Below are positions 451 through 55,576 of a DNA stretch of 64,000 nt, in pieces. The notes beneath the pieces are model-generated. The model ran no database searches. It was not told the origin of the DNA and saw nothing but the letters and a program-made list of their open reading frames with translations. The number at the start of each line of letters is the position of its first letter. The first letter of the stretch is position 1. This DNA comes from a virus. Made by a program: the position numbers and the translations under genes. Where the stretch lies: IMG/VR virus record IMGVR_UViG_3300045988_153472. The stretch is one strand, 5' to 3'.

Positions 451-577
451 TTATTGCTTCATCCTTATCCGTATGCTATAATTTACTTAACACATAATTC
501 ATATTATCATAATTTTGGAAAAAAGTAAAGTTTTTTATTTTGTAAGTAAAATTAGTGTAATTTTGTACAACGGAGGG

Positions 578-1777
578 ATGTATATGGCAAGAAGGGAAAA
601 AGGTTCAGGATCATGGGATACTGTAACAAAGAATGACATTACATACTATAGGTACCGTAAGAAATATAATGGTATGACAAGCCGGAAAGAATTTGTAGGA
701 AGGACAAAAGCTGATGTAAAACGCAAGATACAAGAATTTGAAGCTAAGAGTATGAGGGTTAACCAAAAAGATTATCGTAAGATGACTCTTGGGGAATGTA
801 TAGATAATATCCTGCAGACGTTGGAGCAGACTTTCAAGACAAATAACTATGCTACTCTTCAGTCTACAAATCGCTGCTATATTAAAACTAATCCGATTGC
901 TGATGTACAGATGGCTGCTATAGACAAGATTGTCATTCAAACATACTATACAAATATGTCGAAGAAATATTCTGAGAGCACTGTTAAAAAGACACGCACT
1001 CTTTTCAATATTGTTTTCGACTATCTTGTATCCTGTAACATTATCACAGAGAATCCTGCAAAAGGGATTAAGATGCCGCATAAGTCAAAATATGCAGTAC
1101 AGAAGAAAGAACACTCTTTCTTATCTTTAGAAGAGGCTGAGAAGTTTTATAAGACGGCTCTTATGAAAGCAGATTCTGCTTTACCAGGCGTAAGGACAGG
1201 TGATTACATCTATGGACGTAATGCCAGGTTCTGTCTGTTAGTTCTTTATACTGGTATGCGTATAGGAGAAGCTTATGCTCTCACATGGAAAGATATAGAT
1301 TTTAAGAATAATACCATTAACATAGATAAGACAATGGAGCGTATTAAAGTAGATGGCAAATATCAGTGGCTCATAGATACACCAAAGCGTCCTAAGTCAA
1401 TTAGAGTCATTCCTCTGGCAAATCGTGCAAAAGAACAGCTACTCTGGCTTAAAACTGTATCTCCTGGACTGAAAGCATCCGGAGATGATCACATATTCGT
1501 AACTGAAAATAATATTCCACCATCACAATCAACTCTTACCAGAACACTTAAAGCGATTCTCAAGAGAGCTGGCATCGAATCTAATGGCTTCGGCCTACAT
1601 GATCTTAGGCATTCGTTCGGATCTATGCTGCTGCAGAAAGGATGGGAACAGAACCAACCTGTAGATATCAAGGTAATATCAGAGATACTTGGACATGAAG
1701 ATGTTTCCACAACTTATAACATATATATGCATATCATGAATAAACATAAATCAGAAGTCATAAATTTACTTGATTAA
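578..1777 (+). CDS. int: Tyrosine recombinase / phage integrase
   Basis: C-terminal catalytic region has HDLRHSFGSML ... LGHEDVSTTYNIYMH (H-x-x-R ... Y nucleophile) and an upstream R box (GMRIGEAYALTWKDID). The likely start is the ATG at 578/584 after a GGAGGG RBS, not the long ORF start at 515. Next to a tRNA gene. Confidence 0.85.
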   Translation: MYMARREKGSGSWDTVTKNDITYYRYRKKYNGMTSRKEFVGRTKADVKRKIQEFEAKSMRVNQKDYRKMTLGECIDNILQTLEQTFKTNNYATLQSTNRCYIKTNPIADVQMAAIDKIVIQTYYTNMSKKYSESTVKKTRTLFNIVFDYLVSCNIITENPAKGIKMPHKSKYAVQKKEHSFLSLEEAEKFYKTALMKADSALPGVRTGDYIYGRNARFCLLVLYTGMRIGEAYALTWKDIDFKNNTINIDKTMERIKVDGKYQWLIDTPKRPKSIRVIPLANRAKEQLLWLKTVSPGLKASGDDHIFVTENNIPPSQSTLTRTLKAILKRAGIESNGFGLHDLRHSFGSMLLQKGWEQNQPVDIKVISEILGHEDVSTTYNIYMHIMNKHKSEVINLLD

Positions 1778-23949: not shown

Positions 23950-24720
23950 TCATGCCTCCTCTTCAAAGATGCTTCCGCTAATACCTAAGGCTTCAGCAAG
24001 TAGTGTTTTCAGAGGTTCTGATGGATTCTGATCATTCAACCATCCTAAATAACTATCTGGAATTTCAGAGAGTGGTTCTCCCTTATGTTTGCCGAATGGC
24101 ATAAGATATGTTTCTGGTGTAGGTTTGAATTCTTTCATCAGTTCATCTACTTCAGTTTCATCAAAAGATACTGTTAAATCTTTTCTTGATGCTAAATAAT
24201 CTGCTAAGTGAACTATCATCTGACCTTTTGTTTCTGGTAATGGTAGCTCATCTTTACTTCTTTTATCTGTGTTCCATTCACCCATATGTGAAGCACAACA
24301 GTCTGCAATATAATCCAATTCTTCATCTGGCAACCATTCAAATCCTTTATAGGATTTTATTCTCTCAGCTATAAGTAACGGGTGTTTAAAAAGAGTATAT
24401 TGACTGCCATTACGCCCAAGTTTTTCATCATCATGGTTCATAATAGCTGTTCGTAGCATATCTCTTTCTCTTGATGTAAACTGACTCTTGATACAATCAA
24501 TTGACAGCATATGATTTAAGAATCTAGTTGCTCCTTTTACATGTTTAGCAAGTCCCATAAAACCAACTGTATAATCAGGGTGATACTTGTTAGTACTTGA
24601 AGCAGACACTTGCCAGAAATATGTAGGCGCAGTATCTAGTAATTCAATACAAAATTCTTGAATATCATCATTTTCAAATACTTCTAATTCTTCCTTAAAA
24701 AATCTCTCTGCTAATGTCAT
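23950..24720 (-). CDS. HD-domain phosphohydrolase
   Basis: Spaced metal-ligand motifs: STNKYHP (H), IMNHDDEK (HD) and CASHMGEW (H). Confidence 0.5.
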   Translation of the reverse strand: MTLAERFFKEELEVFENDDIQEFCIELLDTAPTYFWQVSASSTNKYHPDYTVGFMGLAKHVKGATRFLNHMLSIDCIKSQFTSRERDMLRTAIMNHDDEKLGRNGSQYTLFKHPLLIAERIKSYKGFEWLPDEELDYIADCCASHMGEWNTDKRSKDELPLPETKGQMIVHLADYLASRKDLTVSFDETEVDELMKEFKPTPETYLMPFGKHKGEPLSEIPDSYLGWLNDQNPSEPLKTLLAEALGISGSIFEEEA

Positions 24721-26015
24721 ACAGTTTCCTCCTCAATAATTTCTTGTGCCTCTTCCATATCCGGTGTATCAGAGGAATCTTTTATCAATCCTTCAAGGAC
24801 CTTGAAAGTGAAATTCTTGTGTTTATAAGCCTTAAAGCTACTTCTATTATCAATTCTTACAACTACACCTTCTCTAACATGTGTCGCCCCTATTGGATCA
24901 GGCCCATCATAGTATTTTTCTATACGCTCCATAAGATCTTCTTTAGTAGTAAACAGGAATTTATCAAATTCAGGTACATGTTTAACTCCTAAACGATCAC
25001 ACCAATTCTTTACTTCTTCCCATGGAATCTCTGTAATAATCCCATCTTCATTGGTCATAGTCATTCTATAAACATAAATATCAGAAGTACCAGGAGTACA
25101 CCCATAAGAGAACACTGTTTCATCACCGTAAAGCTTCTTAACTTCTTTATCTTTAATTTTAGTGTTGGAACAGGTTCCCATAATGGTCTGCTCTGTACCA
25201 TCAACCCACCCTACGATTTCATAAAACACTTCCATTCCTTTTGGCAGTTTGTCAATAAAGTAGTCATGATATTTCTGTCTAAATTTATCATTCCCATAGT
25301 AACTGCCTTCAAATGTATTGAGTACAACTCTTCTTGTTCCAGTAACTATTTTCCATTCTTTGATAACAGGAGCCGGTCTACAAAAAAGTTTCTGTAGTAG
25401 AGTCTTTTTCTTAGTAGTTACTTCTATTGCATTTGCTGTTCGACCAGATGTGCCATGCATTTTCAAAGTAATGTAACAAGTATCTCCTGGTTTAAAGGCA
25501 TTTAAGTTATATGCTAACTGTTCTGTATCAGCATGTTCTTTAAAATAAGGAAATTTATTTTTTAGATTTGGAGTTTTTACTTTCGGACCATTGTTAGATT
25601 TTTTATGATTTGATCTTGGAATATATTTTTTACAGATAACTGTCCCATCAAGTACAGTAATTTGATCTCCTAAAGATAATTTATTTATATCAGTCCATTT
25701 ACTAAGAGATTCTACTGGTAAAACCAATCCTTCTGATTTTTCACCTCGCAGTCTCATAGCTTTAATGTTTCGTTTTACAGGATCAAGATATCCACCTGTA
25801 GTTGTTCCATCTTCATTTTTAATACGCAGTAAATTGTTTTCTTTTGCAAATTCTTCTCCTAGCTGACCATCAACCGGGAAAAATACAACTTTCTGCCCTT
25901 CGTAATAACTTAAATCAACAATAACCGTATTTCCAAAAACGGTACCAAGCTGGAGCCTATCAGCATTGCTGTGTTTACGAAGTTGCTTAAGCTCAGTAAT
26001 GTAAGCACAATACAT
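24717..26015 (-). CDS. ATP-dependent RNA ligase, Rnl5-like (DraRnl/NgrRnl-type) with N-terminal extension
   Basis: Nucleotidyltransferase motif I LKMHGTSGR with the Lys at about residue 185, matching the K-x-H-G-T-N pattern of Rnl2/Rnl5 RNA ligases. It is preceded by an N-terminal domain of about 180 aa, as in DraRnl/NgrRnl. Confidence 0.6.
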   Translation of the reverse strand: MYCAYITELKQLRKHSNADRLQLGTVFGNTVIVDLSYYEGQKVVFFPVDGQLGEEFAKENNLLRIKNEDGTTTGGYLDPVKRNIKAMRLRGEKSEGLVLPVESLSKWTDINKLSLGDQITVLDGTVICKKYIPRSNHKKSNNGPKVKTPNLKNKFPYFKEHADTEQLAYNLNAFKPGDTCYITLKMHGTSGRTANAIEVTTKKKTLLQKLFCRPAPVIKEWKIVTGTRRVVLNTFEGSYYGNDKFRQKYHDYFIDKLPKGMEVFYEIVGWVDGTEQTIMGTCSNTKIKDKEVKKLYGDETVFSYGCTPGTSDIYVYRMTMTNEDGIITEIPWEEVKNWCDRLGVKHVPEFDKFLFTTKEDLMERIEKYYDGPDPIGATHVREGVVVRIDNRSSFKAYKHKNFTFKVLEGLIKDSSDTPDMEEAQEIIEEETV

Positions 26016-26181
26016 TAAGTATTGAATACCTCTTTCTCACTCATAATTCTCTTGCACAGATCAATTACATCTGTGTTGCCTCCTTTTACTTCGTTATATA
26101 TTTTAGTAACACCATAAAGTTTTCCTATATGGAATCCTTTGTTATATGTATCAGTAATTTTCTTTTTCATCTTTTTTCTAG

Positions 26182-26739
26182 TTATAAACACGTAGCTCCC
26201 CCTGTTATTTCTTCTAAAGTTCTAGGAGTATAATTCAGCAGCATTGCTCCGACATTATACATTTTACATGGTGTATTATATAGATTTTCCATTTCATACT
26301 TTGTTCTTTGCATCATATTATTTTCAAAACCTGTATGTACATGTCCATATAAATGATACCAACCATAGTAATGATTCTTAAAACAAGGAATCGGATAATG
26401 ACAAAGAATAATACTCTCTTTTGGATTAAGGTATAGTTCTTTATAATCAACTATTTCTACAAATAAATTCTGTAAATCTTTGTTTTTCAGAATCTTATTA
26501 TCATGATTTCCTTTTATTAAATGAATCCTACCATTTAACTGGCTGTAATACTCCAATGTTTTAGTTGAACCATACCAACTAATATCTCCTAAAAGATAAA
26601 CATCATCATCTAAGCCAACTACTGAATTCCAATTATTTTTAATAGTTTCATCGTTCTCTTCTATTGTCTTAAATGGTCTAGCATCGAATGCCAATGCATT
26701 TGTGTGACCAATATGTAAGTCTGAAATATAATAATTCAT
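26182..26739 (-). CDS. Calcineurin-like metallophosphoesterase
   Basis: DLHIGH, LLGDISWYG and IKGNHD motifs (D-x-H, GD, GNH[DE]). Confidence 0.7.
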   Translation of the reverse strand: MNYYISDLHIGHTNALAFDARPFKTIEENDETIKNNWNSVVGLDDDVYLLGDISWYGSTKTLEYYSQLNGRIHLIKGNHDNKILKNKDLQNLFVEIVDYKELYLNPKESIILCHYPIPCFKNHYYGWYHLYGHVHTGFENNMMQRTKYEMENLYNTPCKMYNVGAMLLNYTPRTLEEITGGATCL

Positions 26740-27096
26740 AAGCTACTCACCACAACACTAAGTATATCAATAACGCCAACAATTAGTAATATTATATAAA
26801 ATCTTGTTCCATGTATCCCTATTGATGAGCAATAGGCTCCTAGAATACCCCAACATAGAATATTCAAAATTGATAAAAATGTTTTCATAGCTCACCTATC
26901 CAATCTTCATAAATATTATCTGCATGTGCTTCAATATCATCATGTAATGTCTCTTCTGGGTAATCAATAAGAGACTCCATAATATAAGAAGTTGTAATCA
27001 TATCTAAAGCTTTCTCACCTGACAGTAGGTATTTTCTTTGTAATATATCTTTTAGACATTCAATATAATCTTTGGCGTTTTCTGTAAGCTCTGCCA

Positions 27097-27942
27097 TTAT
27101 GCGATCCTCACAATCTGTTCATATAGAACTATATCTTTTATTGTTATTGCTTTATTGTCGTGGTAATGCCCACACAACCAGCGCTTATAATCAACATTGC
27201 ACCTTATTTCTTCCAGATAATTAGTTAACTTATCCGGCTTATATAATCCATGTGATAATAATGCTGCTGTAGAAGAAGCTGTACAATGTGTCAGGATAAA
27301 ATCTACTTTATTATCATGTTCTGCCAGATTCTTTATACCCTCATCCATCTCTTCTTGACCGGGCATTTCTCGCTCCCACCACGAAATGTGATTGATTCGA
27401 TACATTTTATCTGGATCATCCCTCCATTCTTTTACTCTTGGATCGTCAATCTCTAATACTCCATCTGAAATATCATGACTGGCAGCCCCGCCAAAAGTAA
27501 AAAATTTTAAATCGTCTATATCAAATACTTGTCCTCTCATAAGATGAATTACTGATGGCTTAATAAAATGTACCTTACCACCATGCCATTCTTCTACCGG
27601 ATAAGCATCTAATATATCGTAACATTCATGATTTCCGTCAATAAAGAGTGTTGTGAAATGCTTCTCTTCAAGCCAATTCAGATACCATCTTTGTTGCGGT
27701 GAATCTCTCCATATCCCAAAATCTCCAAGAACAATTACATAGTCATCTTTAGTCATCTCTCTTTGTTCCGGGAACGAGTCCATATTTAATCTATGGATCC
27801 AATCCCCATGTGTATCACCTGTGATCCAAATTACTTCCACCACCTCCAACAATATGTAGCGATTGAAAATCCTACAAGAATCATGAAATATGCTATAGGT
27901 ATCGCAAAGAACATTTTCATAATTGAAATTAGTAAAATACAC
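27097..27942 (-). CDS. Calcineurin-like metallophosphoesterase (second copy)
   Basis: ITGDTHGDW, VIVLGDFG and IDGNHE motifs. Confidence 0.7.
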   Translation of the reverse strand: MYFTNFNYENVLCDTYSIFHDSCRIFNRYILLEVVEVIWITGDTHGDWIHRLNMDSFPEQREMTKDDYVIVLGDFGIWRDSPQQRWYLNWLEEKHFTTLFIDGNHECYDILDAYPVEEWHGGKVHFIKPSVIHLMRGQVFDIDDLKFFTFGGAASHDISDGVLEIDDPRVKEWRDDPDKMYRINHISWWEREMPGQEEMDEGIKNLAEHDNKVDFILTHCTASSTAALLSHGLYKPDKLTNYLEEIRCNVDYKRWLCGHYHDNKAITIKDIVLYEQIVRIA

Positions 27943-28069
27943 AGGTTTAATTTTTTATCTGCAATCATGTTTAATATTGTTACTACTGGCAAAAGCATTA
28001 ACTTCCAACCACTACATATAGCTCCAATTACTCCACATATAGCAGAAATCCATCCCATGGTTTGCTTAA

Positions 28070-28468
28070 TCACTTAATTCCTCCTAAACTATCAATCCAT
28101 TGTTTTACCTTGCCATTATCGTATGTTTTTGTAATCAATACGGCAGACACTGTTTGCCCTATTCTTCCATGATATTTACGATATGTACTTTCATCATTAA
28201 GTGAATATTCAGTTCCGTTATAATTTACCGTAATTTCATATTCAGCATAATCAGTTCGAAATTGCGGAACATGATTAACCATACCTGTAAAACGGGTTTC
28301 TTTAGGTTTATAATATTCATTTACAACTGTGACCTTCACGCTTTCCTCTTTTTTATCAATGCATTTAGCACAACCAGTTAATGTTGAAATACTTATCAAT
28401 AGAACTCCTAAAATACTTAATACTTTCTTTTTCATAAACTCTCTCCTACATTTGTAGTTAAGGTCCAA
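28070..28468 (-). CDS. Putative lipoprotein
   Basis: Signal peptide MKKKVLSILGVLLISISTLTGCAK with an LTGC lipobox. Confidence 0.5.
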   Translation of the reverse strand: MDLNYKCRREFMKKKVLSILGVLLISISTLTGCAKCIDKKEESVKVTVVNEYYKPKETRFTGMVNHVPQFRTDYAEYEITVNYNGTEYSLNDESTYRKYHGRIGQTVSAVLITKTYDNGKVKQWIDSLGGIK

Positions 28469-28923: not shown

Positions 28924-29895
28924 TTATTTATTTTCAACAGTTGCTACATTGCCTGATGTTAATTCTCCTGCGTCAACAATTGTTGCAGCATTTCCACCTT
29001 GTACCTTCGGCACATCACCATTCCACTTATCAATCTTCTGTTTCTCAATAAGTTCTGGAGTAAGTGACTCAGCGATCTTTTTATTTGCTTCTGCTTCAGC
29101 ATCCGCTTTAATTCTTGTAGCTTCAGCTTTACCTTCCGCAGTGATTTTCGCCTGTTCAGCTTCAATAGCGGCTTTCTCTTTATCCTGCTCCGCTGCGATG
29201 AGAGCAACTTCCTTATCTTTATCTGCCTGTACCTTTGCAGTCTTAGCTTCAATATTTGCAAGTTCCAGTTCCTGCTGTGCATTTACTTTCTTCTGAATAG
29301 CAGCCTGAGTTTCATCATCTGTAGAAATTGAAGTAAAGTTTACAGTATCAATGATGATTCCATATGGCTCAAATTTCTTTTTCAAGTATTTGTCAAGTGC
29401 TTCATTCAGTTCCTGGCGTTTATCACCAAATACATCTGTTACCGGATACTTAGCAGTTACTTCCTGTGTCCACGCTTTCATCTTTGGTTTAATGAAAGTA
29501 TTTTTTACACTTTCTCCGGACTGACCTTTAAATCTTGTAAATACATCAGCAACTTGATCCTGATCGAACTTATAAGAGAATTCCAAATCAACAAGAAGCT
29601 GTTTCCCATCTGCGGTAGGAGTTTTAAAACTCTCATCTTTTGGTGAATCACCTTTATCTTCTGAAGTCAGATAAGACTGTTCAATACCAATTGAATACAG
29701 TGATGTTTTTACTGTAGGTGAAATCAAATTCCATCCCTGTGAAAGAGTATCTTTTGAAATTCCACCGTTCATCTTGTATTCTACAGCTACATAACCAGCA
29801 GGAACTCTTACTGTGCACTTTGCTACACAAATTAATCCTGCTGCAATTATTACTGCTAATCCAACCCCACCTAAAAAACCTTTTTTCTTTTTCAT
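28924..29895 (-). CDS. SPFH/band-7 (prohibitin/flotillin-like) membrane protein
   Basis: N-terminal TM helix, then VPAGYVAVEYKMNGGISKDTLSQGWNLISP (SPFH core), then a long Ala/Lys/Glu-rich coiled coil. Confidence 0.8.
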   Translation of the reverse strand: MKKKKGFLGGVGLAVIIAAGLICVAKCTVRVPAGYVAVEYKMNGGISKDTLSQGWNLISPTVKTSLYSIGIEQSYLTSEDKGDSPKDESFKTPTADGKQLLVDLEFSYKFDQDQVADVFTRFKGQSGESVKNTFIKPKMKAWTQEVTAKYPVTDVFGDKRQELNEALDKYLKKKFEPYGIIIDTVNFTSISTDDETQAAIQKKVNAQQELELANIEAKTAKVQADKDKEVALIAAEQDKEKAAIEAEQAKITAEGKAEATRIKADAEAEANKKIAESLTPELIEKQKIDKWNGDVPKVQGGNAATIVDAGELTSGNVATVENK

Positions 29896-30473: not shown

Positions 30474-30920
30474 TTAAGTTTCATTTAATTCATCTCTCAC
30501 TCTCATAAGTATCTTCCCAAGCCTATTTTCTCCAACTCCATCTACAGTTCCCCAAATAGTATCTCCCCAAATATTACCCTCTTCCAAATATTCATCTCCT
30601 GTAGCAAGTAATTTTTCCTTAAGGTCTGGATTCTGAGTGAATTTAGCCAGTACAATTTCATACATTACTTTATCTTTCACTTCTTCCCAATCTGATCTCA
30701 AATCAATCTTTCTACCTGCTGCCTTTGCTTCTGATGGGCTAGCTTGAGAAAATAACTGGAATTTTAGTCTACGATTTTTTGTTTTCTGTGCTTGAAAAGC
30801 TGCTTCATTATTCGTATAGTCCCATCCGTTATAACTTACCGGTGCCATATAAAAGTTACTTAAAAAGTAATAATCTCCAGTGAAACTATTAATCATTCTT
30901 TCTCCTTCCCTAATAATCAC
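30474..30920 (-). CDS. NADAR (YbiA/DUF1768) domain protein
   Basis: GDYYFLSNFYMAPV...EAAFQAQKT and ...GENRLGKILMRVRDEL match YbiA GDFSNFA...SEHYFQAQKF and ...KNRLGYLLMELREQL. Confidence 0.8.
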   Translation of the reverse strand: MIIREGERMINSFTGDYYFLSNFYMAPVSYNGWDYTNNEAAFQAQKTKNRRLKFQLFSQASPSEAKAAGRKIDLRSDWEEVKDKVMYEIVLAKFTQNPDLKEKLLATGDEYLEEGNIWGDTIWGTVDGVGENRLGKILMRVRDELNET

Positions 30921-31325: not shown

Positions 31326-32075
31326 TTATTTGCCTTTCTTTGCTTTCAGTTCCTGCAACTTTTTATTAATTTCATCATCTTTCATTTTCTTATCCAGACG
31401 CTGTTTTTGCACAATAGTAGAACTTTCATAAACGATCCTAGCTCCATCAGCAGCCTCTTTTTGCTTTTTAACTCCGTCACGTACTTTCTCTAGCATCTTT
31501 TCCTCTTCACTAGAAGATACTCCCGGTGTTACATTAAAAGCTTTTGATGCCTGAGCTGTTTCCAAAGTTAAAACAGCACTTTCTTTTTCTGCTTTTAAAT
31601 CATTAAGCTGTTGCTGTAATACTTCTACTTTTTCTTTCTGTACGTCAGCATTCTCTTTCCATTCTTTTAATGTACTCTTAATAAAATCAATCTTATCATT
31701 CAGCTCCTGTTGTTCTTTTAAGTAGACTTTTGCCGCTTCGTCATCTCCTCGATCCACACAAGCATTTACATTTACATCTGCTTTCATGGCATCTTTCTTC
31801 AAATGGAACAAATCATCTTCATAATTAGAAATCTTACCAAGCATCTGCTGATATCTTACATTCTCCTGCTGAAGTTCATCTTCTTTCTTCTCAATAGCGG
31901 CATTATAATATGCTTTAGCTCCTTCAGGTGTAGACGCATCTTTCTGAATCGCTTCGTTTGCCGTGCCAGATGCTCTTATTCTTACTCTTTTTCCAATTTT
32001 ACTATTAAAAAAGAAATAAAGTCCTACGAGTACTAAAATAACAATCATAACAATTCCTCCAGCTGTAATATTCAT
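31326..32075 (-). CDS. PspA/IM30-like coiled-coil protein with N-terminal TM helix
   Basis: A TM segment (IVMIVILVLVGLYFFF) followed by about 200 aa of heptad-rich coiled coil. Start overlaps the TerD gene. Confidence 0.35.
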   Translation of the reverse strand: MNITAGGIVMIVILVLVGLYFFFNSKIGKRVRIRASGTANEAIQKDASTPEGAKAYYNAAIEKKEDELQQENVRYQQMLGKISNYEDDLFHLKKDAMKADVNVNACVDRGDDEAAKVYLKEQQELNDKIDFIKSTLKEWKENADVQKEKVEVLQQQLNDLKAEKESAVLTLETAQASKAFNVTPGVSSSEEEKMLEKVRDGVKKQKEAADGARIVYESSTIVQKQRLDKKMKDDEINKKLQELKAKKGK

Positions 32076-41170: not shown

Positions 41171-42638
41171 CTTTGTTTCTTCCGTTTAATCTGTCTCTGA
41201 TTTCTTTAAATATTTCTGTATGATATATTTCACCGTCTTTAAATACAGTTTTTAATGCCCCATCATAAACAAAGCTGTCATATCCATCTCTGCACCTTAA
41301 TTCTCCATTTTCATCGTAATATACATGACAACATCCTTTATGAGATTTCTTTAAATGGCTTACATCTGTCTTTGGATCTTTGTAAATCATAATCGGTTGT
41401 CCGTTAACTTCTCCAAATGTAGCTTTCATAGCAATGCCGAACATATCTCTGGTTACAACGACCATACGTCCATCAGGTTCTACAACTGCCGAGAAACAAA
41501 AAGCCCCAACTCCAAATACAATGTTGTTTGCAGCGAATCCTTTCTTCTCAAGTTCTTCCCATACCTTTTTTACATTGTTAAGAGTACAGCCATCACCATA
41601 GATAATTCCAATATGAGGGTCCAGTACTTTGTAACCTTTGCTATTTACTGATCCTTCAAATGTATTCCAGAGTTTTTCGATAGTCTTAACTGAAATCTCT
41701 ACCATATCACCAGAATCCGGACGAACCAAGAGCTTACCATTGTGCTGCATAATTTCTTTTTTGCAAGCTGGAAGAATATTGTCAATCATGTTCCAGTAAT
41801 CATATGTATCAGATACCATGCTGAAAGATGCATTCGGATATAATTCTGTAAGTAGTCTTTTCACAAATGTAATTTCGTCTCCGTCCACAGCATAATTTGA
41901 AGCCATGACCGCATGTTCGGTAGAAATCGCACCAATTCCAATATGACTCACGCTACAGTCATTGAAATAATATTTGTCCAAATAATCAATTGCCGGGATC
42001 GTACTTGTCTTATCAAAGGATAATAGCCAAGCAACGGAGCATCTCTCTGCTTCTTCCATACAGGACATTCCACGCATTCCAAAGTCTGAGCAGGCCATTT
42101 CAGGTCTTAAAATGTCGTCGCAGGTCTTTTTATAGTAGAAATTTGCCAGTTCTCTGTACATATGTCCAATTGTTGCATGAGCACACGGCTTCCAAAGCTC
42201 AACCTGCAGAATACACTCAATCCACTGCACAACCCATGCAAAATCTGGATGTGTATTCGTGATTTCAATGCATGGCACTCCCATAGGCACTAATGTACCT
42301 TCCGGTAATGCACGGATCTGAATCGGAAGATACCCTAATTCGTGAAGTTTAAGGATTGGAGAAATATCGTAATTTCCTTCTCCTAACTGAATGTCCATAC
42401 TAATTGTATAAAGTTCTTGAACTTCATCAGTGCTTAATTTAAAGAAATCTCTTTTAAAATATGTAATAAGATATTCTTTAATAAAAGCCTGCAGTCCGAA
42501 GAAAACCATATGATCCTGCTCCTTTAACATTGATCTTCTCGGAGTCCAATAAGAGACTAACTTCGTCAATCCTCTCGGAAACATATTGTGGTGTACTTGT
42601 TTGTAAGTATCGCTTAACAGAATTGCTAAGGTATCCAT
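41163..42638 (-). CDS. Nicotinamide phosphoribosyltransferase family protein (Nampt/NadV, or the NARP1 Namat-type enzyme)
   Basis: 491 aa. N-terminus ILLSDTYKQVHHNMFPRG matches Nampt LATDSYKVTHYKQYPP. Confidence 0.7.
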   Translation of the reverse strand: MDTLAILLSDTYKQVHHNMFPRGLTKLVSYWTPRRSMLKEQDHMVFFGLQAFIKEYLITYFKRDFFKLSTDEVQELYTISMDIQLGEGNYDISPILKLHELGYLPIQIRALPEGTLVPMGVPCIEITNTHPDFAWVVQWIECILQVELWKPCAHATIGHMYRELANFYYKKTCDDILRPEMACSDFGMRGMSCMEEAERCSVAWLLSFDKTSTIPAIDYLDKYYFNDCSVSHIGIGAISTEHAVMASNYAVDGDEITFVKRLLTELYPNASFSMVSDTYDYWNMIDNILPACKKEIMQHNGKLLVRPDSGDMVEISVKTIEKLWNTFEGSVNSKGYKVLDPHIGIIYGDGCTLNNVKKVWEELEKKGFAANNIVFGVGAFCFSAVVEPDGRMVVVTRDMFGIAMKATFGEVNGQPIMIYKDPKTDVSHLKKSHKGCCHVYYDENGELRCRDGYDSFVYDGALKTVFKDGEIYHTEIFKEIRDRLNGRNKDE

Positions 42639-42962
42639 TATTTTTTATCCTCCTCTTTGTCGTTTACAACTTTATCAATCTGATCAGTAATGTAATCAAT
42701 AACATCCTTGCCGGTTTTCCCAATTGCTTGAACATTGTCCGATGTTAGTTCATTTGCAACCATCATTGTATAAACGGTTTCGGTAGTTGGTGTAAGAACT
42801 GTTAAAATTACAGAAATAATCCCAATTGAAATAAATAACTTGAATCCATTCTTTGTTAAATCATCAAATCCTATCAAACATATTGCAAATGCAGCTACTG
42901 CAACAATCAGAAATAAAGTCCCCACTGCATCTGCTCTACTTGCAAAATAAATCAACCAAGGA

Positions 42963-43331
42963 CTAATAATTGGTTCCATACTTTCTCATCTCCTTTATAA
43001 TTTTATCAACTTCATATTCTCTTAAAATATCATCCACATCTTCTATATGAGAATATCTATTAGAGTGTCTATATGTAGCAATTTCATAAGCCATTGATTC
43101 AATCACGTCTTGTAAGCTTAGAAGTCTATCTTCCCATTTGTATGTTTCTGTACGGTAATCTGGTAATTCTCTTAATGGACATAATTTAGGAATCGTTGAA
43201 TGTTCTTTCCTTTTTAAGGAATTAATGTATTTATTTAATAATTGGCAATAATATCCATACGTTTCTAATTCTGAAAATGGGCATTCGTCACATGAATTAG
43301 GTTCTTCTATAGATAACATAACTTTACTCAT
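42963..43331 (-). CDS. Small Cys-motif protein (tandem paralog 1)
   Basis: MSK-led; SCDECPF ... CPLRELPD. Confidence 0.4.
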   Translation of the reverse strand: MSKVMLSIEEPNSCDECPFSELETYGYYCQLLNKYINSLKRKEHSTIPKLCPLRELPDYRTETYKWEDRLLSLQDVIESMAYEIATYRHSNRYSHIEDVDDILREYEVDKIIKEMRKYGTNY

Positions 43332-43611
43332 TATTATCTTCTCCTGTAATTTCTCTCAAACAATCATTCCAACCAATCTTGTAGCTAGGCATTTTTCCAT
43401 TGCTTTGAAAATACTCTCTTCCGTACACTCCTGTTAATTTCATTTTATCCGGCAATGGATTCAAAGGACATCCTTTCATTAACTCATCCCACGAATCACC
43501 AGCATTGAAATTTGCATTAGCATCTTGTACTGTGCATTCATCTGCATCGTTTAATAGCGGACAACGTATACATTTCTCTGGCGTATCAATCACTAATACT
43601 GATTTACTCAT
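43324..43611 (-). CDS. Small Cys-motif protein (tandem paralog 2)
   Basis: MSK-led; KCIRCPLL ... GCPLNPLPD. Shares the C-x-x-CP ... CPL..LPD pattern with the neighbour. Confidence 0.4.
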   Translation of the reverse strand: MSKSVLVIDTPEKCIRCPLLNDADECTVQDANANFNAGDSWDELMKGCPLNPLPDKMKLTGVYGREYFQSNGKMPSYKIGWNDCLREITGEDNNE

Positions 43612-43663
43612 TTTCTTCTCTTACCTCTTTTCTGCAAGAATGCTGCGTGTGTACAGGACTGAT

Positions 43664-44467
43664 TCATCTAAATCTCTCAACCAATTCAATCTTAGGACTT
43701 TCCAGATTTGTCAAAATCGTATCTGTCGTATAAATCTTCTCTATCAGTCCATTGTTTTTCAGAAGCTCTCCATCATAAACAGTGTTTTCACAATGAGTAA
43801 CATAAAGATAAATCTTACCTACACCGGCCTCTTTCAGCTTTTTAGCACTGTGATAAAAAGTTCCGCCTTTACTACAAATATCGTCTACAATAAGGATATC
43901 TTTACCTGGCAGTTGATTAATTTCACCTGATAAATCTAAACCTTTAATTTCTCCGGTCTCCCAATCTCTATTCTTAATACCGAAAGCATATGGAAGATGT
44001 ACTGCTGAAGAATATCTTTTCATAGATCCTGCATCCGGATAAAACATCATAAGATTATCACTAGCAATCTTCTTGACAGTATCCTCAATCATTCGATTCG
44101 GGGATCCTACATGTACTTTATTAAATAATGCAGCAGATACATCAGAATGTGGATCTAAAACTTCTACTTTTCCAAAATGTAATGAATTAATAGTCTGAGC
44201 AAAATATTTTAAAGTAAATAATTCGTTCTCATGCTTAACTCGGTCCATACGTGCATCTGGGATATAAGGCATATATAAATTAGGCACTACTCTATGGTCC
44301 CAACAATATCTAGTAATATATTCAACTGCTGTTAACTCTTCCATTGATTCAAAGAACCATTCAATATTATCTCTGCACCATCCTCCAATAGGAGGAATAT
44401 CCTTAAATAAGAATGTTCCATCCGGATATTTATCAAGTTTGATTTCTACACCGTTTAATTTAATCAT
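43664..44467 (-). CDS. Ribose-phosphate pyrophosphokinase (Prs)-family enzyme; candidate ADPR-PP synthetase
   Basis: KVEVLDPHSD (Prs DLH motif), YPDAGSMKRYSSAV, and DILIVDDICSKGGTF (PRPP-binding loop). Shorter than canonical Prs. Confidence 0.65.
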   Translation of the reverse strand: MIKLNGVEIKLDKYPDGTFLFKDIPPIGGWCRDNIEWFFESMEELTAVEYITRYCWDHRVVPNLYMPYIPDARMDRVKHENELFTLKYFAQTINSLHFGKVEVLDPHSDVSAALFNKVHVGSPNRMIEDTVKKIASDNLMMFYPDAGSMKRYSSAVHLPYAFGIKNRDWETGEIKGLDLSGEINQLPGKDILIVDDICSKGGTFYHSAKKLKEAGVGKIYLYVTHCENTVYDGELLKNNGLIEKIYTTDTILTNLESPKIELVERFR

Positions 44468-44983
44468 TCCAAATCTCCTTATAATTTATTTCTTACTGTT
44501 TAATAATCCTTACTTAACTTTTACTTATGCTCAATATCACAGGTAGTTATTACAGACGGATTATTCAAATGATTGCCATTACAGAAATTATTGATAAAAT
44601 CCACCTGTCTTTGGAGATAATCAATAGAATCACATAGTGAAACTTTTACATAACTTAATAATTCTGCGACAATTGTACTAATCTTAAACAGTTCATTTTC
44701 TTTATCATCGTATTCAACGCCATCTGCATGATTAAACGGTGAGGTTGCGTCAGCTGTTTTTATATAAAAATCATTATCCTCATTTTTATAAATTGAGCAC
44801 ACCCAAATAGTATCGTCATAAAGCCCATCAAACTCAAATACTTGTAAGGTTTCTGTATTGTTTTTTTCAACAAGTTTTGTAGTGATCACTCCATCACAGT
44901 CATATTTACGTAAGTAGTTCTGAATATCCTCTAATGTAATTTCTTCTAATTTCTTCATTTTCACAGTATTTTCTCCTACCATC

Positions 44984-45559
44984 TTATTTCTCTCCTATCA
45001 CATTAATCTGACAACTTTTCATCACCTCTAAAGCTGCTTTATGCTTCTCCAGTGTAGTTCCAGCGCAGCATGACGCATCTACTGTGATCTCTGCCTCCGG
45101 ATAATAAGTTTTGATAAGAAGAGCATTTGTGATAACGCAGATGTCTGTACACACACCTATGATTTCAATGTTTAAATTGTCTATATCACTGTCTGTCCCA
45201 AATATTTCTTCCCAATCCCAGCCTTCATAACCAAAAGTTGACTTTTTACATACCATAAAATTGTTATAATTATTTTTTACAGGATGAATTTCATCTATAA
45301 CCTCCCACCCTGAAGTTCGATATATACAATGTTCAACAGGAAGTTTTTTACCCTCAGAAGTATTCAAATAATCTGAATTATGTGTATCCATTGTATACAC
45401 TACATAATCCCCATTATTTTTATATTCTTCAAACTTTTCTTTAATTTTAGGTACAATAGCTTGAGCTTCCGGCGTACCAAGTGAACCGGTTACAAAATCA
45501 TTCTGTACATCAATAACAATTAAAATTTTCTTTTTATTTTCCACAAGCATTACCTCCAA
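44984..45559 (-). CDS. Isochorismatase-family hydrolase, nicotinamidase (PncA)-like
   Basis: ILIVIDVQNDF (catalytic Asp), TMDTHNSDY...VEH (possible metal ligands) and GVCTDICV (catalytic Cys). Confidence 0.5.
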   Translation of the reverse strand: MEVMLVENKKKILIVIDVQNDFVTGSLGTPEAQAIVPKIKEKFEEYKNNGDYVVYTMDTHNSDYLNTSEGKKLPVEHCIYRTSGWEVIDEIHPVKNNYNNFMVCKKSTFGYEGWDWEEIFGTDSDIDNLNIEIIGVCTDICVITNALLIKTYYPEAEITVDASCCAGTTLEKHKAALEVMKSCQINVIGEK

Positions 45560-46157: not shown

Positions 46158-46239
46158 TCCACCCAGAGAGACTCGAACTCTCACGCTATTAAGCATTAGA
46201 ACCTAAATCTAACGTGTCTGCCAATTCCACCATGGGTGG
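46158..46239 (-). tRNA. tRNA-Leu (anticodon UAG), type II
   Basis: Reverse complement: acceptor CCACCCA/TGGGTGG, anticodon stem TTAGA/TCTAA with loop TTTAGGT, long variable arm, T-arm GAGAG-TTCGAGT-CTCTC. Manual fold only. Confidence 0.6.
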
Positions 46240-46681
46240 GTACAACTGGCAGTTCAACTGCCAATTGTTAATAATGAAAGCGACTATTATATTTACTTAT
46301 TCACTACTTACCAGCCTTGTACAAACTAAGAGCCAAGTATAATCATGCTCATAAACTTTTACCAAGGATTTGATAAATCTTTATTCTTTATGCTTTATTC
46401 TTTAATCTTTAAACTGGGATAAACTTTGAATTTTGAATTTTAAGATTTGAGTTTTAATCTTTGAACTTTACAGTACTATGGCTATCTGCCTCATCCAATA
46501 ATATAATATATTAAGCTTACAGGTCCTATACGACCACGTAATCCTAATCCATTTTGTATTTTATACTATTATCTACTGTATAAGTAATGCTGTGGTTTCT
46601 TTATTGTTTTATATATGTCTAACCCAGCTAAAAGGACATATAGATTATAGTTTAAAGTTTTCGATAAGCAGTGAATATATC

Positions 46682-47320
46682 TTAGTATGTAATTTCTATT
46701 TCTGTCAGAGAATTACTTACTGAAAGTGCCGCATCTACTTCAGCAGTGAACTCTGCAATTTCTGTTTCTAAATCCTCCATTTCTTTAAGAACACCAATTG
46801 GATCAACAAGTTCCATTGTCTGAGCTTCTATATAGGCTTCTCTAGTTTTTGTAAACTCTTCAGTAGAGGTTTTACCTTCTTTGCTACCATAGAGCCCTAC
46901 AACATAATTTTCAGCTTTATCTTCCAATTTACCATTCTCAGTTATGATCTGAGCCATAGCAGCATCATACTGTTTTTTAATTTTCTGTTTTAAAAGTTTC
47001 TTGAAGTCCATTCCATGATTTTTCATTTCAATAGCTTCAGCTACTGTATACTCTTTATCAGCAACAGTGACTTTAGTTACTGCATTTGAAAGAACTACAG
47101 CTCTTTTAATAGCTTCTCTTCTCTTGATTAAATCAGTTGCTTTATCATAAGAAGATTTCATAACCCCTGTGTAAACTTTGATATCTACACCTTTGACTTT
47201 TGTGTTAGAATGCTTATTTGAAATACAAGCTTCTACACTGTTAATTGCTTTTACAATACGATCATCTAAGATCTTCAGTTCCGCTAATGCTTTGTGTACA
47301 TTCATTTTTTCTGTTGTCAT
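46682..47320 (-). CDS. Hypothetical protein inside the tRNA cluster
   Basis: 212 aa ORF with no recognised motifs. Confidence 0.4.
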   Translation of the reverse strand: MTTEKMNVHKALAELKILDDRIVKAINSVEACISNKHSNTKVKGVDIKVYTGVMKSSYDKATDLIKRREAIKRAVVLSNAVTKVTVADKEYTVAEAIEMKNHGMDFKKLLKQKIKKQYDAAMAQIITENGKLEDKAENYVVGLYGSKEGKTSTEEFTKTREAYIEAQTMELVDPIGVLKEMEDLETEIAEFTAEVDAALSVSNSLTEIEITY

Positions 47321-47361
47321 GATAAATACCTCCTGAATTTTAAACTTTAATTTAATTGCCT

Positions 47362-47435
47362 GTGATAAGAGTGGACTCGAACCACCGACCTCACTTTTGC
47401 AGTGCGCTCTTTTTCACAACTGAGCTACTTATCAC
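47362..47435 (-). tRNA. tRNA-like gene with His identity elements (G-1, C73) but non-canonical anticodon arm
   Basis: Reverse complement: G-1, acceptor TGATAAG/CTTATCA, discriminator C, D-stem GCTC/GAGC with an oversized D-loop, T-arm GGTGG-TTCGAGT-CCACT. The central part CGCAC-TGCAAAA-GTGAG does not give a standard 5-bp stem with a 7-nt loop. Confidence 0.35.
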
Positions 47436-47657
47436 TTTTCATGCATGACCTGTCATGCTGCAGTCACAACAGGATTATGTGTTCTTTGATCAGCTCAATT
47501 CCCTACATTTTCTCTAAAGCTGAATGTTTGTCTCATTACAAAACATCTCAAAAACTATCTGTCTTTCCAGCGCCATCTGATTCTCACTACCAAATCAGCA
47601 ACGGCTCTTTACTATTGAAAATTAGAGCTCTCAAAAGTCACTCATTCGTCAGGAGAA

Positions 47658-47731
47658 GTGGAAACTCTGGGACTCGAACCCAGGACCGACCGGTTATGAG
47701 CCGGTTGCTCTAACCAACTGAGCTAAGTTTC
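47658..47731 (-). tRNA. tRNA-Met (elongator) or tRNA-Ile2 (anticodon CAU)
   Basis: Reverse complement GGAAACT-TA-GCTC-AGTTGGTTA-GAGC-A-ACCGG-CTCATAA-CCGGT-CGGTC-CTGGG-TTCGAGT-CCCAG-AGTTTCC-A is a clean cloverleaf. The G1-C72 pair argues against an initiator. Confidence 0.85.
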
Positions 47732-48100
47732 CATAGTGGGTGAACTTTGAAAACACCCACATATAAAAACGTAACAACTATAATGATTGATTTGTAATCA
47801 TGTCAGCTACACGAACAGTCGTCACCATTCCGTTGCCCCATCACTCACCTCTACCTCACTGACTCAATTACTTTTTTCGCCTTATACTAATTACTCATTA
47901 GCACAAAGCACATCTATATAAATGTTTTGTACATTCAAACCATTGCTACCAATGTACTGTGTTCCCTTTTTTGAACAGGTTCCAGTTATTAAACCATCCA
48001 AAATTTCACTTAAGTTTTATCTATGTTCGCCATGAACATAAGTAGGTATACCTTAGTTCTATTGGTTACCTCTTTGGCCTTCAGAGCTAACTTAGAACTA

Positions 48101-48172
48101 CGGGGTAGATGGGATTCGAACCAGCGAATGCAGCAGTCAAAGTGCTGTGCCTTACCGCTTGGCCACTACCCT
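48101..48172 (-). tRNA. tRNA-Gln (anticodon UUG), with weak T-stem
   Basis: Reverse complement aligns with E. coli tRNA-Gln: AGGGTAG-TG-GCC-AAGCGGTAAG-GCA-CAGCA-CTTTGAC-TGCTG-CATTC-GCTGG-TTCGAAT-CCCAT-CTACCCC-G. The T-stem pairs poorly and position 1-72 is A-C. Confidence 0.5.
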
Positions 48173-51030: not shown

Positions 51031-53067
51031 TCAACACTTTTTTACAAACTTGTTTAAAAATTCTTTTTCTGAAATTATCGGGACACCAAGCTGCATAGCT
51101 TTCACATTCTTGCTACTCTTTGACAATGTATCATTATTAATAAGGTAGTTAGTTTTTTTAGTTACTGATCCTGTGACTTTACCTCCAAGAGACTCTATTT
51201 TCTCTACTAGAGCTGCTCTATTGGCAAACTCGGTGAGTGTCCCAGTAATACAGAATATTGCCCCATTCAAAACATCTTTTACCGTCTCCTGAGAAATTTC
51301 TTCAAACTGGAATTCCGCAGCAAGCTCAGTTATGTATCTTTGATTTTCTTCAAAATAATTTTTCAAAGAAGAAGCTTTCGCAAAACCAAAGTCTTCCAAA
51401 CATGTAAAATCATACTGAGAATCCATATCTTTAATAAAGCTATCAAAAGCTGTTTTTAACCCTTTTTCTCTTGCTCTCTTCTCTTCAACAATGTTTAGCT
51501 GCTTACTAACACTTCGACCGATTAAAGGTATGGACAGCCCATAAAGGAATTTAGGCAGAGTTGTCTTGCGGCATTTTTCTATTGATTCCAGGATTTTATC
51601 AACCTTTTTTGCTCCTAGCCCTTGTAATGTCACTAACATTCCCCGGCAGTCTTTTAGATAAAATAAGTCTAAAGGCCCTTTAATAAATTCTTTCTCTATT
51701 AATAGACTCAGAGTAGATTTAGAAAGCCCTGTAATATCATGTGCTTCTTTGCTTACAAAAGTACATAATTCACCAAGAAGTTTCCCTTTACATTCAAGGT
51801 TCATGCACTGAAGCTCTTCTGTCTCATTTTCACCTGTAATTTTTACATGACCACCACAAATAGGGCACTTGTCAGGCACAGTAAACAATTTGTCACCGTT
51901 TCTGGTCAAATTCTCTGCGATCTGCGGAATGATCATGTTTGCCTTATATACCGTAATCGTATCTCCTACTGACAGTTCATAACTTTTGAAAATACTCACA
52001 TTATGTAAGCTAGCTCTTTCAACAATAGTATCATCTATTTCAACCGGATCAAAAACTGCCACAGGTGTCAACTGTCCAGTCTTTCCCATGCTCCATTCCA
52101 CATCTCTAATTACTGTTTCAAACTTATCATCTGCAAATTTATATGCCAATTGTGATCGAACATGATGTGATGTGTTTCCTAAGCTTTCACTATAATCAAT
52201 ATCATCATATGAAAATACGATTCCATCAATAGGAACATCTTTTTCTCTTGCGGTTTTTCTAAGTTCTTTAATATTCTCTTCAATATTATCAACTTTTACC
52301 CAAGGGACCACTTCAAATCCTAACAGATCTAATATCTGTAATCTTTTCATGAAACTATTTCCATCTATTCCACGAACGGCCTTCCAAGCAATGAACTTGA
52401 TTTTTCTTTCTTTTGTAACGGAGTTATCAAGCTGTCTAACAGAGCCAGCAGTTAAATTTCTGATATTCTTAATACCATTATCTTTAATATATTTTTCTAA
52501 TTCTTCACCAAAAAGTCCCTTTCTTTCTCCATCTTTTTTCAGATCAATATCTTTTAGCTCTTTAAGATAAGTATAATGATGGATTTCCATGACAGCTTCT
52601 CCATCAACTACTACTTCATCTTTATAAGGAATTTCCTTTGGAAGATTTACAAAACTGTTTGCTGTATGTAAAACATTCTCTCCGATGATTCCATTCCCTC
52701 TAGTTTCTGCAGCAACCAATTTACCATCTATATATTTTACTGAAATAGTAAGCCCATCCATTTTTAGCATGGCTAATCCTGGCAAACCATTCATAAAACT
52801 TTCAACTTCATTTATATCCTTTGTTTTGTCTAAGGACAACATTGGATGATCATGTTCGACTTTTTCTAACTCACTAACTGTTTCTGAGCCAACATTGATA
52901 GTGGGACTGTTGGCTAAAATAATACCTGTAACTTTCTCAAGTTCTTTAAGTCGATCATATTTTTTATCATATTCATAATCAGAAATTAGAGAAGTATCTT
53001 CCATATAATACGCATGAGCATATATATTTAATTCTTCCACTAATTCACGCATTTCTTTTAAAAGCAC
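51031..53067 (-). CDS. ligA: NAD+-dependent DNA ligase
   Basis: 678 aa. Adenylation motif LKMDGLTISVKY (KxDG), Zn-finger CPICGGHV...C...C, and a C-terminal BRCT-like region (IFCITGTL...). Confidence 0.8.
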   Translation of the reverse strand: MLLKEMRELVEELNIYAHAYYMEDTSLISDYEYDKKYDRLKELEKVTGIILANSPTINVGSETVSELEKVEHDHPMLSLDKTKDINEVESFMNGLPGLAMLKMDGLTISVKYIDGKLVAAETRGNGIIGENVLHTANSFVNLPKEIPYKDEVVVDGEAVMEIHHYTYLKELKDIDLKKDGERKGLFGEELEKYIKDNGIKNIRNLTAGSVRQLDNSVTKERKIKFIAWKAVRGIDGNSFMKRLQILDLLGFEVVPWVKVDNIEENIKELRKTAREKDVPIDGIVFSYDDIDYSESLGNTSHHVRSQLAYKFADDKFETVIRDVEWSMGKTGQLTPVAVFDPVEIDDTIVERASLHNVSIFKSYELSVGDTITVYKANMIIPQIAENLTRNGDKLFTVPDKCPICGGHVKITGENETEELQCMNLECKGKLLGELCTFVSKEAHDITGLSKSTLSLLIEKEFIKGPLDLFYLKDCRGMLVTLQGLGAKKVDKILESIEKCRKTTLPKFLYGLSIPLIGRSVSKQLNIVEEKRAREKGLKTAFDSFIKDMDSQYDFTCLEDFGFAKASSLKNYFEENQRYITELAAEFQFEEISQETVKDVLNGAIFCITGTLTEFANRAALVEKIESLGGKVTGSVTKKTNYLINNDTLSKSSKNVKAMQLGVPIISEKEFLNKFVKKC

Positions 53068-55536: not shown

Positions 55537-55576
55537 TTTGCAACCTCCTTTCTTGTATTATATCATTGTTTAGAAC

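Follow-up and report, generated by a model that had tools for sequence, protein, structure and literature searches.

RNA ligases of the Rnl5 family are defined by an N-terminal OB domain and a nucleotidyltransferase domain, without a C-terminal domain (PMC4408790, PMC7261155). In DraRnl of Deinococcus radiodurans, mutagenesis defined the motifs TEKLHG, SK, E230, F281, 305-EGVVV-309, and K326 (PMC1807946). A described pattern of phage RNA repair combines a ligase, a polynucleotide kinase (PNK), a phosphoesterase, and RlaP; calcineurin-like phosphatases are an occasional variant in a few jumbo phages (PMC7824862). RlaP-family proteins, whose name reflects an association with RNA ligases, are reported to add one or two nucleotides (NMP) to damaged RNA 3′ ends (PMC12776372). 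The HD-Pnk fusion of Runella slithyformis is an established healing enzyme with 2′,3′-phosphoesterase and 5′-kinase activities, and its gene overlaps a ligase gene (PMC6097658). Here we analyze a 64,000-nucleotide stretch of viral DNA (IMG/VR record IMGVR_UViG_3300045988_153472; hereafter the window), which encodes a predicted RNA ligase close to two metallophosphoesterases (MPE1 and MPE2). We hold, with somewhat more confidence than doubt, that the window derives from a large phage or prophage (~165 kb) whose hosts are gut Clostridia of the Lachnospiraceae type, and carries a dispersed RNA-repair set of known type composed of the ligase, a Pnk-HD protein, and an RlaP-family protein.

The ligase is sequentially composed of an OB domain (residues ~1–130), a disordered Lys-rich linker (~133–158), a nucleotidyltransferase domain, and an acidic helical tail of ~30 residues. 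Motif I reads T183-L-K185-M-H187-G188-T-S. The initial annotation, made from the DNA letters alone, had proposed a DraRnl/NgrRnl-like enzyme with a K-M-H-G-T-S motif and its lysine near position 185; the lysine is exactly residue 185. The other motifs are Ia (~225-SGTRR-229), III (E266), IIIa (Y316), IV (382-EGVVV-386), and V (K398 and K400). Across 15 diverse homologs, no variation is seen at K185, H187, G188, E266, Y316, E382, G383, K398, and K400. Profile, fold, and motif comparison with DraRnl and NgrRnl recovers motifs I, III, IV, and V as well as the N-terminal domain.

The ligase matches the profiles PF09414 RNA_ligase (2.8e-09) and phrog_968 RNA ligase (1.3e-71). The match to the OB domain profile PF21189 scores 24.9 bits, slightly below the 27-bit cut-off. 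Residues 6–222 match TIGR02306 (RNA_lig_DRB0094) at 2.7e-16, but the score of 59.4 bits stays below the cut-off of 151. A comparison profile was built from 35 cellular proteins of the TIGR02306 type collected in a genome scan, two of which (Streptomyces-type) score 200 and 466 bits on TIGR02306. The phage family aligns with this profile over both domains by hhalign (probability 99.8%, E 1e-27, residues 4–389 on 6–298). By sequence, the ligase is thus placed in a divergent sister branch (phrog_968) and is not a DraRnl equivalog.

A search of the PDB with the single ligase sequence returned no relevant match. A profile of the 15 diverse homologs reached NgrRnl of Naegleria gruberi (5cot, 3.8e-07), with residues 6–125 aligned on residues 8–118 of the NgrRnl N-terminal domain. 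An AlphaFold (AF2) model of the ligase has a pLDDT of 82. In Foldseek, the model matches the NgrRnl entries over the full length (E 2e-16 to 7e-15, TM score of 0.63–0.68 on the target; 0.66–0.68 for the match at E 2e-16). NgrRnl is far ahead of the T4 Rnl2 and Rnl3 enzymes, T4 Rnl2 being the next family (1.6e-07). OB domains of the PheRS-beta and MetRS-C types were also matched. The protein ends 50 residues past the motif IV glutamate, as compared with 37 in DraRnl, and the model places only two short, low-confidence helices in this segment. Since the ligase contains the OB and nucleotidyltransferase domains and no appended domain, it falls within the Rnl5 definition. Both sequence and model indicate that the architecture is genuinely that of DraRnl and NgrRnl, as first proposed.

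The ligase shares with the Rnl5 enzymes the order of OB and nucleotidyltransferase domains, the lack of a C-terminal domain, and the motif I T-x-K-x-H-G and motif IV EGVVV of DraRnl. In the profile alignment, D49 aligns with D53 of NgrRnl. However, the two differ in several respects. The window ligase is ~90 residues longer, owing to the Lys-rich linker, insertions between motifs I and Ia and between motifs III and IIIa, and the acidic tail. Its identity to NgrRnl is 17–18%, and its motif IIIa is Y-R rather than F-D. It is also phage-encoded and belongs to a family usually linked to Pnk-HD and RlaP. With T4 Rnl2 and the kinetoplastid REL enzymes, the ligase shares the PF09414 nucleotidyltransferase core; T4 Rnl2 and the Rnl5 type are both nick-sealing. 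T4 Rnl2 presumably also shares the K-x-H-G-T motif I and the K-x-K-N motif V. Unlike T4 Rnl2, the window ligase has an N-terminal OB domain and lacks the C-terminal helical domain, and its fold match to T4 Rnl2 is much weaker than that to NgrRnl.

The branch to which the ligase belongs is large. A homolog search scored at least 8000 proteins, many from gut-metagenome contigs, and the literature searched yielded no biochemical study of this Rnl5-like branch. Megablast of the region gave no match in the phage collection, and homologs were reached by protein-level searches. The nearest annotated phages are the large Bacillus siphoviruses vB_BcoS-136, PBC2, Kirov, and Thrax, with ~53% identity in the ligase. 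The protein was also considered as the DNA ligase of the phage, and this was rejected; a separate NAD-dependent LigA is encoded in the window.

The separate Pnk-HD gene pointed out by the initial annotation is present. The protein consists of an N-terminal P-loop kinase domain (18-GLPASGKST-26, D44) and a C-terminal HD phosphoesterase domain (H207-D208 and others). The kinase domain matches the kinase of Clostridium thermocellum Pnkp (CthPnkp; 4gp7, 7e-09), T4 Pnk (4e-05), and phrog_505 polynucleotide kinase (8.7e-21). Pnk-HD is therefore predicted from its sequence to be a bifunctional end-healing enzyme and, by analogy with Runella HD-Pnk, would alone supply both healing activities. In most ligase relatives, as in Runella, such a protein is encoded beside an ATP-dependent ligase. 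The window differs from Runella in that the domain order is reversed, with the kinase first and the HD domain second, the gene is 23 kb from the ligase, and the ligases are of different families. In a match to phrog_6931, the kinase domain aligns to the C-terminal half of the profile; that family thus apparently has the HD-Pnk order, a circular permutation. RlaP is encoded 10 kb from the ligase.

The combination of kinase, phosphoesterase, and ATP-dependent ligase follows the same logic as CthPnkp and the T4 Pnkp-Rnl1 pair. However, the phosphoesterase is an HD domain in the window, a lambda-phosphatase-type metallophosphoesterase in CthPnkp, and a HAD domain (DxDxT acylphosphatase-type) in T4 Pnkp, and the window ligase is of the Rnl5 type rather than Rnl4 or Rnl1. 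All the families of the pattern described for phages (PMC7824862, PMC12776372) are encoded in the window. Pfam scans of 53 window open reading frames (ORFs), covering all those of at least 140 residues together with some shorter ones, detected no RtcB, 2H, Tpt1/KptA, or Hen1.

The genomic neighborhoods of ligase homologs were surveyed at the best 80 viral and the best 80 genome loci, up to 10 kb on each side. The ORFs were searched iteratively with the window proteins, and ligases were collapsed at 90% identity, giving 69 clusters besides the window's own. Of these 69 clusters, 42 have a full-length Pnk-HD gene no more than 3 kb from the ligase, and 25 have an RlaP-like nucleotidyltransferase gene within this distance. 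The corresponding counts are five for MPE2-like genes, two for the HD-domain gene that follows the ligase in the window, and zero for MPE1. A frequent order among relatives is ligase, RlaP-like gene, and Pnk-HD. In the two regions examined in vB_BcoS-136 and PBC2, a polynucleotide kinase of ~330–340 residues, homologous to the window Pnk-HD, is encoded directly after the ligase. Apart from a more distant locus, L007, the arrangement of ligase and MPE genes is seen only in the 15 loci of the species-level cluster that includes the window. Four further loci (L113–L116, from Mollicutes, Bacilli, and Eubacteriales contigs) contain no detected Pnk-HD and have an MPE2-like gene (30–52% identity) 3–6 kb downstream of the ligase. 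They are the sole hint of a ligase–MPE association outside the window's lineage.

Both MPE genes encode calcineurin-like phosphoesterases, as first noted. The metal-binding motifs of MPE1 are complete (D7-x-H9, D51, N78-H79, H114, and H133-x-H135). MPE1 belongs to the aq_1665/phrog_547 family and matches the PDB entry 1xm7 (Aquifex aq_1665, of unknown function) at 3.7e-09; the match to the PdeM nuclease model is weak (1.7e-05). The family has homologs in 727 phage records from a wide range of hosts, and "phosphoesterase" is the sole annotation given to any of them. The motifs of MPE2 are likewise complete (GDTHG, GDFG, GNHE, THC, and GHYH) and are invariant in 24 homologs. These homologs are 245–247 residues long, and their first residue corresponds to residue 35 of the mechanical ORF, encoded by a GTG at position 27840, so this ORF is probably over-extended.

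No solved sequence relative of MPE2 was found in the PDB, even with a family profile. MPE2 adopts a Dbr1/MPPED2-like phosphodiesterase fold, with Dbr1 and CWF19L1 as the top fold matches. Lambda phosphatase (6.8), PP5 (6.0), and calcineurin (5.6) score far below these, which places MPE2 outside both the PPP-type protein phosphatases and the lambda-phosphatase clade. By its predicted fold, MPE2 resembles a phosphodiesterase, and the fold points to no particular substrate. MPE1 and aq_1665, like MPE2 and the Dbr1, CWF19L1, and MPPED2 proteins, share the binuclear metallophosphoesterase fold with all metal ligands, but the sequence identities are 12–19% and MPE2 lacks the C-terminal domain of Dbr1. 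The phosphatase domain of Pnkp is a member of the lambda-phosphatase clade. The initial annotation had compared the MPEs to this domain; searches of PDB sequences with MPE1, MPE2, and the MPE2 profile, up to E 1–10, gave no Pnkp or lambda-phosphatase match, and the fold of MPE2 speaks against the comparison as well. Both MPEs fall outside the Ser/Thr protein phosphatase subfamilies. Homologs of MPE2 are also found in the actinophages Baka and Trina, in gene contexts that are uninformative. In Trina, the homolog is located among tRNA genes, with a nucleotidyltransferase gene two genes upstream and a kinase gene 6 kb off.

Table 1. Features of the window. Positions refer to the 64,000-nucleotide stretch.
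Feature	Position	Strand	Remarks
HD-domain phosphohydrolase, 256 residues	23950–24720	minus	4-base start overlap with ligase stop
RNA ligase, ATP-dependent (predicted), 432 residues	24717–26015	minus	uninterrupted ORF, Rnl5 architecture
orf58, small basic ORF between MPE1 and ligase	26015–26191	minus	kept in near-identical relatives
MPE1, metallophosphoesterase, 185 residues	26182–26739	minus	PF00149 5.9e-07; phrog_547 1.5e-43
orf50, small hydrophobic, membrane-type ORF	26736–26888	minus	
orf70, small acidic protein	26885–27097	minus	phrog_13182
MPE2, metallophosphoesterase, ~247 residues	27097–27840 (mechanical ORF to 27942)	minus	PF00149 1.3e-08; phrog_1649 1.8e-50
TM80	27831–28073	minus	first in local transcription order, ahead of MPE2
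RlaP-family Pol-beta nucleotidyltransferase, 344 residues	36124–37158	minus	PF10127 4.3e-16; phrog_388 8.3e-52
tRNA cluster (Leu-tag, Met-cat, Gln-ttg, further tRNA-like element, RAGATH-27 RNA)	46158–48172	minus	just downstream of Pnk-HD
Pnk-HD, 309 residues	49351–50280	minus	AAA_33 8.5e-21 + HD (PF01966) 7.4e-05
NAD-dependent DNA ligase LigA	51031–53067		

The window is AT-rich (GC content ~34%), and its GC skew is strongly negative over the full length. It is almost entirely co-directional, nearly all long ORFs being on the minus strand. The order of transcription around the ligase is MPE2, orf70, orf50, MPE1, orf58, ligase, and HD gene (Table 1). The MPE genes are thus upstream of the ligase and not directly after it, as had been claimed, and orf70, orf50, and orf58 intervene. 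The gene that directly follows the ligase is the HD phosphohydrolase, which the initial annotation overlooked. No family match was found for orf58 in profile scans. Beyond the HD gene come orf63, a YorF-like gene, a Sak4-type AAA_24 ATPase, a YorH-like gene, a DnaB-type helicase, an unassigned ORF of 378 residues, a PD-(D/E)XK nuclease, and PolIII-alpha. When positions 21.5–31.5 kb were scanned for promoters and terminators, fewer sites turned up than in shuffled controls, and no signal on the minus strand divided the genes from one another. Because the window is co-directional and no such signal marks genes off, the adjacency of ligase and MPE genes carries little weight.

The MPE genes vary among close relatives of the window. 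MPE1 shows a natural deletion series: only its last 28 codons remain in loci L020 and L022 (9748–9831), and the gene is absent from L021 and L023. All four loci keep a ligase 87–95% identical to that of the window. In L014 (7120–8919) and L015, MPE2 contains an in-frame insertion of ~318 residues exactly after motif III (...DGNHE|CFHKDT...VVSGN|CYDIL...). The insertion bears the hallmarks of an intein, namely Cys1, a terminal Asn, a +1 Cys, and two LAGLIDADG-like motifs. Its site corresponds to window positions ~27610–27620; the window copy of MPE2 is intein-free. In L009 (8129–8905), L011, L015, and L024, a 258-residue ORF with an AP2-like DNA-binding motif is located between MPE2 and orf70, at a site equivalent to window position ~27097. 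This ORF is absent from the window and is probably a free-standing homing endonuclease gene.

The HD gene product contains H47, H96-D97, H145, and D174, followed by a small C-terminal ExoX-like_C/QSregVF_b domain, and matches phrog_5889 (6e-46). It has no PDB sequence relative. Its homologs (~50% identity) carry both PF01966 HD and PF20600 ExoX-like_C domains. They are encoded directly after PolIII-alpha and an ERCC4 nuclease in L091 and L092, or after RecD2 in L094. In L091 and L092, an MPE2 homolog (67% identity) follows 1–1.6 kb beyond the HD homolog and is followed in turn by an NAD-dependent DNA ligase gene. MPE2 homologs in L093 and L094 (76% and 66% identity) are situated between the ribonucleotide reductase (RNR) gene and the PncA, PRS-like, NAMPT, and NadE genes, and in L094 an MPE1 homolog (66%) is directly downstream of the MPE2 homolog. 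No RNA ligase was found in these four loci within the 7–10 kb fetched on each side. The HD gene is probably an accessory of the replication module and not a partner of the ligase. That it duplicates the Pnk-HD phosphoesterase domain was also considered and rejected (BLASTP E 0.71).

From the observed families, folds, motifs, and neighborhood counts, we infer the enzymatic activities of the set and its RNA substrate, whether tRNA or another RNA. The HD domain of Pnk-HD would remove a 2′,3′-cyclic phosphate or 3′-phosphate from the broken RNA, and the P-loop kinase domain would phosphorylate the 5′-OH. RlaP would restore one or two lost 3′ nucleotides. The ligase would then seal the 3′-OH/5′-PO4 break, passing from lysyl-AMP at K185 to AppRNA and the phosphodiester. 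Its OB domain may assist adenylylation and possibly tRNA binding. The phage can thus probably heal and seal broken RNA. The initial annotation had credited it with every activity needed to repair tRNAs cut by anticodon nucleases. The heal-and-seal parts (ligase, Pnk-HD, and RlaP) are indeed encoded, but the role given to the MPEs does not stand and the tRNA target is an assumption. The MPEs appear to be unrelated neighbors of the ligase because the linkage is not conserved, MPE1 is deleted in phages that keep the ligase, and homologs are found by RNR and NAD-salvage genes. The two MPEs and the HD/ExoX_C protein would be conserved accessory phosphodiesterases or phosphohydrolases of the phage group, outside the repair pathway. 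This lineage may be the only one in which their genes came to lie on either side of the ligase, and the region concerned shows visible rearrangement, through deletions, an intein, and the gene of a homing endonuclease.

Several points weigh against the dispersed repair set. Characterized Rnl5 enzymes seal duplex nicks and their physiological substrates are unknown (PMC4408790, PMC5397189), so repair of the tRNA anticodon loop is an assumption. RlaP and Pnk-HD, the proposed partners, are encoded 10 and 23 kb away from the ligase in the window, so that co-regulation of the three would be an assumption. All catalytic roles of these proteins are predicted from sequence and fold. The survey reached only 10 kb on each side of the best 80 loci per collection. 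Dbr1, the best structural neighbor of MPE2, is an RNA phosphodiesterase. In addition, MPE2 and the HD gene adjoin the ligase in 15 of 15 near-identical loci and in L007. This constant flanking, together with the overlap of the HD gene and the ligase, makes a functional link specific to the lineage possible, and there is a small chance that the ligase, MPE2, and the HD protein form such a unit.

The initial annotation had joined the ligase and the two MPEs in one heal-and-seal cassette, in which the MPEs open 2′,3′-cyclic phosphates and remove 3′-phosphates like Pnkp. The genes share a strand and span no more than 3.2 kb, no terminator was detected between them, and both MPEs retain intact binuclear-metal motifs. 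The nearest fold of MPE2 is that of an RNA-acting enzyme, the gene stays beside the ligase throughout the 15 near-identical loci and in L007, and MPE2-like genes occur 3–6 kb from the ligase in the four genomes without a detected Pnk-HD. A few jumbo phages are also said to use calcineurin-like domains as their phosphatase in RNA repair (PMC7824862). However, in the neighborhood survey neither MPE gene is regularly linked to the ligase, in contrast to Pnk-HD, MPE1 is lost from natural variants that keep the ligase, and in a related phage the MPE pair is located by RNR and NAD-salvage genes without a ligase. The MPEs would also be redundant with the HD domain of Pnk-HD. We therefore consider the cassette distinctly unlikely. 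It is unlikely, too, that the MPEs are counter-defense or nucleotide-metabolism enzymes that act independently of the ligase on cyclic nucleotide, ADP-ribose-derived, or 2′-5′-linked signals. The location of MPE2, once with MPE1, next to the PncA, PRS-like, NAMPT, NadE, and RNR genes in related phages is consistent with such a role, as is the spread of the MPE1 family over phages of many hosts, counted regardless of ligase content. However, this neighborhood evidence comes from a handful of contigs, the top fold matches Dbr1 and CWF19L1 are nucleic-acid enzymes, and the substrates named are hypothetical.

A role of the ligase of this lineage in DNA replication or repair, instead of tRNA repair, is quite unlikely. 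The enzyme would seal nicks with a ribonucleotide 3′-OH, such as those left by RNA primers or ribo-patches, while the HD/ExoX_C protein and the Dbr1/Mre11-like MPEs process the ends. Rnl5 enzymes need an RNA 3′-OH strand at the nick, and DraRnl protects against ionizing radiation (PMC5397189, PMC4408790). In several lineages, the ligase borders the replication module on its upstream side, ahead of YorF, the Sak4-type AAA_24 ATPase, SSB, primase-helicase, and PolIII-alpha. The HD gene overlaps the ligase here and follows PolIII-alpha/ERCC4 elsewhere. However, the strongly conserved partners of the ligase, Pnk-HD and RlaP, are RNA-repair enzymes (PMC12776372), and the phage has its own NAD-dependent DNA ligase. 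A position at the edge of a module is weak evidence in a co-directional genome, and only one lineage shows the links to the HD and MPE genes. It is very improbable that the ligase, in this one lineage uncoupled from Pnk-HD and placed between a pair of Dbr1-like phosphodiesterases and the HD/ExoX_C protein at the head of the replication module, belongs to a new end-processing and sealing unit. If true, such a unit would resolve 2′-5′ or branched RNA–DNA junctions (e.g., retron-type msDNA) or ribonucleotide-terminated nicks, which the Rnl5-type ligase would reseal, and Dbr1-like debranching and repair would be a function present in a bacteriophage.

The remainder of the window contains several other features. 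A RAGATH-27 RNA (89.5 bits) and a fifth tRNA-like element missed by ARAGORN are located inside the tRNA cluster (46588–46675 and 47362–47434, minus strand). A full NAD-salvage set of NadE, NAMPT, a PRPP-synthetase-like protein, and a nicotinamidase-like isochorismatase, along with a NADAR-domain protein, is encoded at 38627–45559 and 30474–30920 (minus strand). The set suggests NAD+ reconstitution against NAD-depleting defenses. MPE2 adjoins this set in related phages. Between RlaP and the ligase region, a tellurite-resistance-type cluster (31326–36121, minus strand) encodes TerD, a vWA-TerF-like protein, an 873-residue P-type cation ATPase, and PspA/IM30, and is accompanied by a gene for an SPFH/Band-7 protein (28924–29895, minus strand); these are unusual cargo for a phage. 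PolIII-alpha (12604–17388, minus strand) is split into parts of 854 and 462 residues, with a NUMOD4 homing-endonuclease gene (14071–14715) between the halves. An IS110-family transposase, which is a rare plus-strand gene, and several tyrosine recombinases, one of them MrpR-like, are encoded at 58000–59352 (plus strand), 515–1777 (plus strand), and 53420–56584 (minus strand). The element is possibly a prophage, either integrated or plasmid-like.

These results correct an attractive annotation that the evidence does not bear out. The RNA repair of this phage would consist of an Rnl5-type ligase, Pnk-HD, and RlaP, a combination with precedents in phages, and its RNA-repair capacity would not be based on a new MPE-based healing module. 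The case illustrates that co-directional arrays of phage genes produce misleading "cassettes". It also draws attention to two widespread families of predicted phage metallophosphoesterases. Given its regular pairing with Pnk-HD and RlaP, the phage ligase branch offers a natural setting in which to look for the substrates that Rnl5 enzymes act on physiologically.

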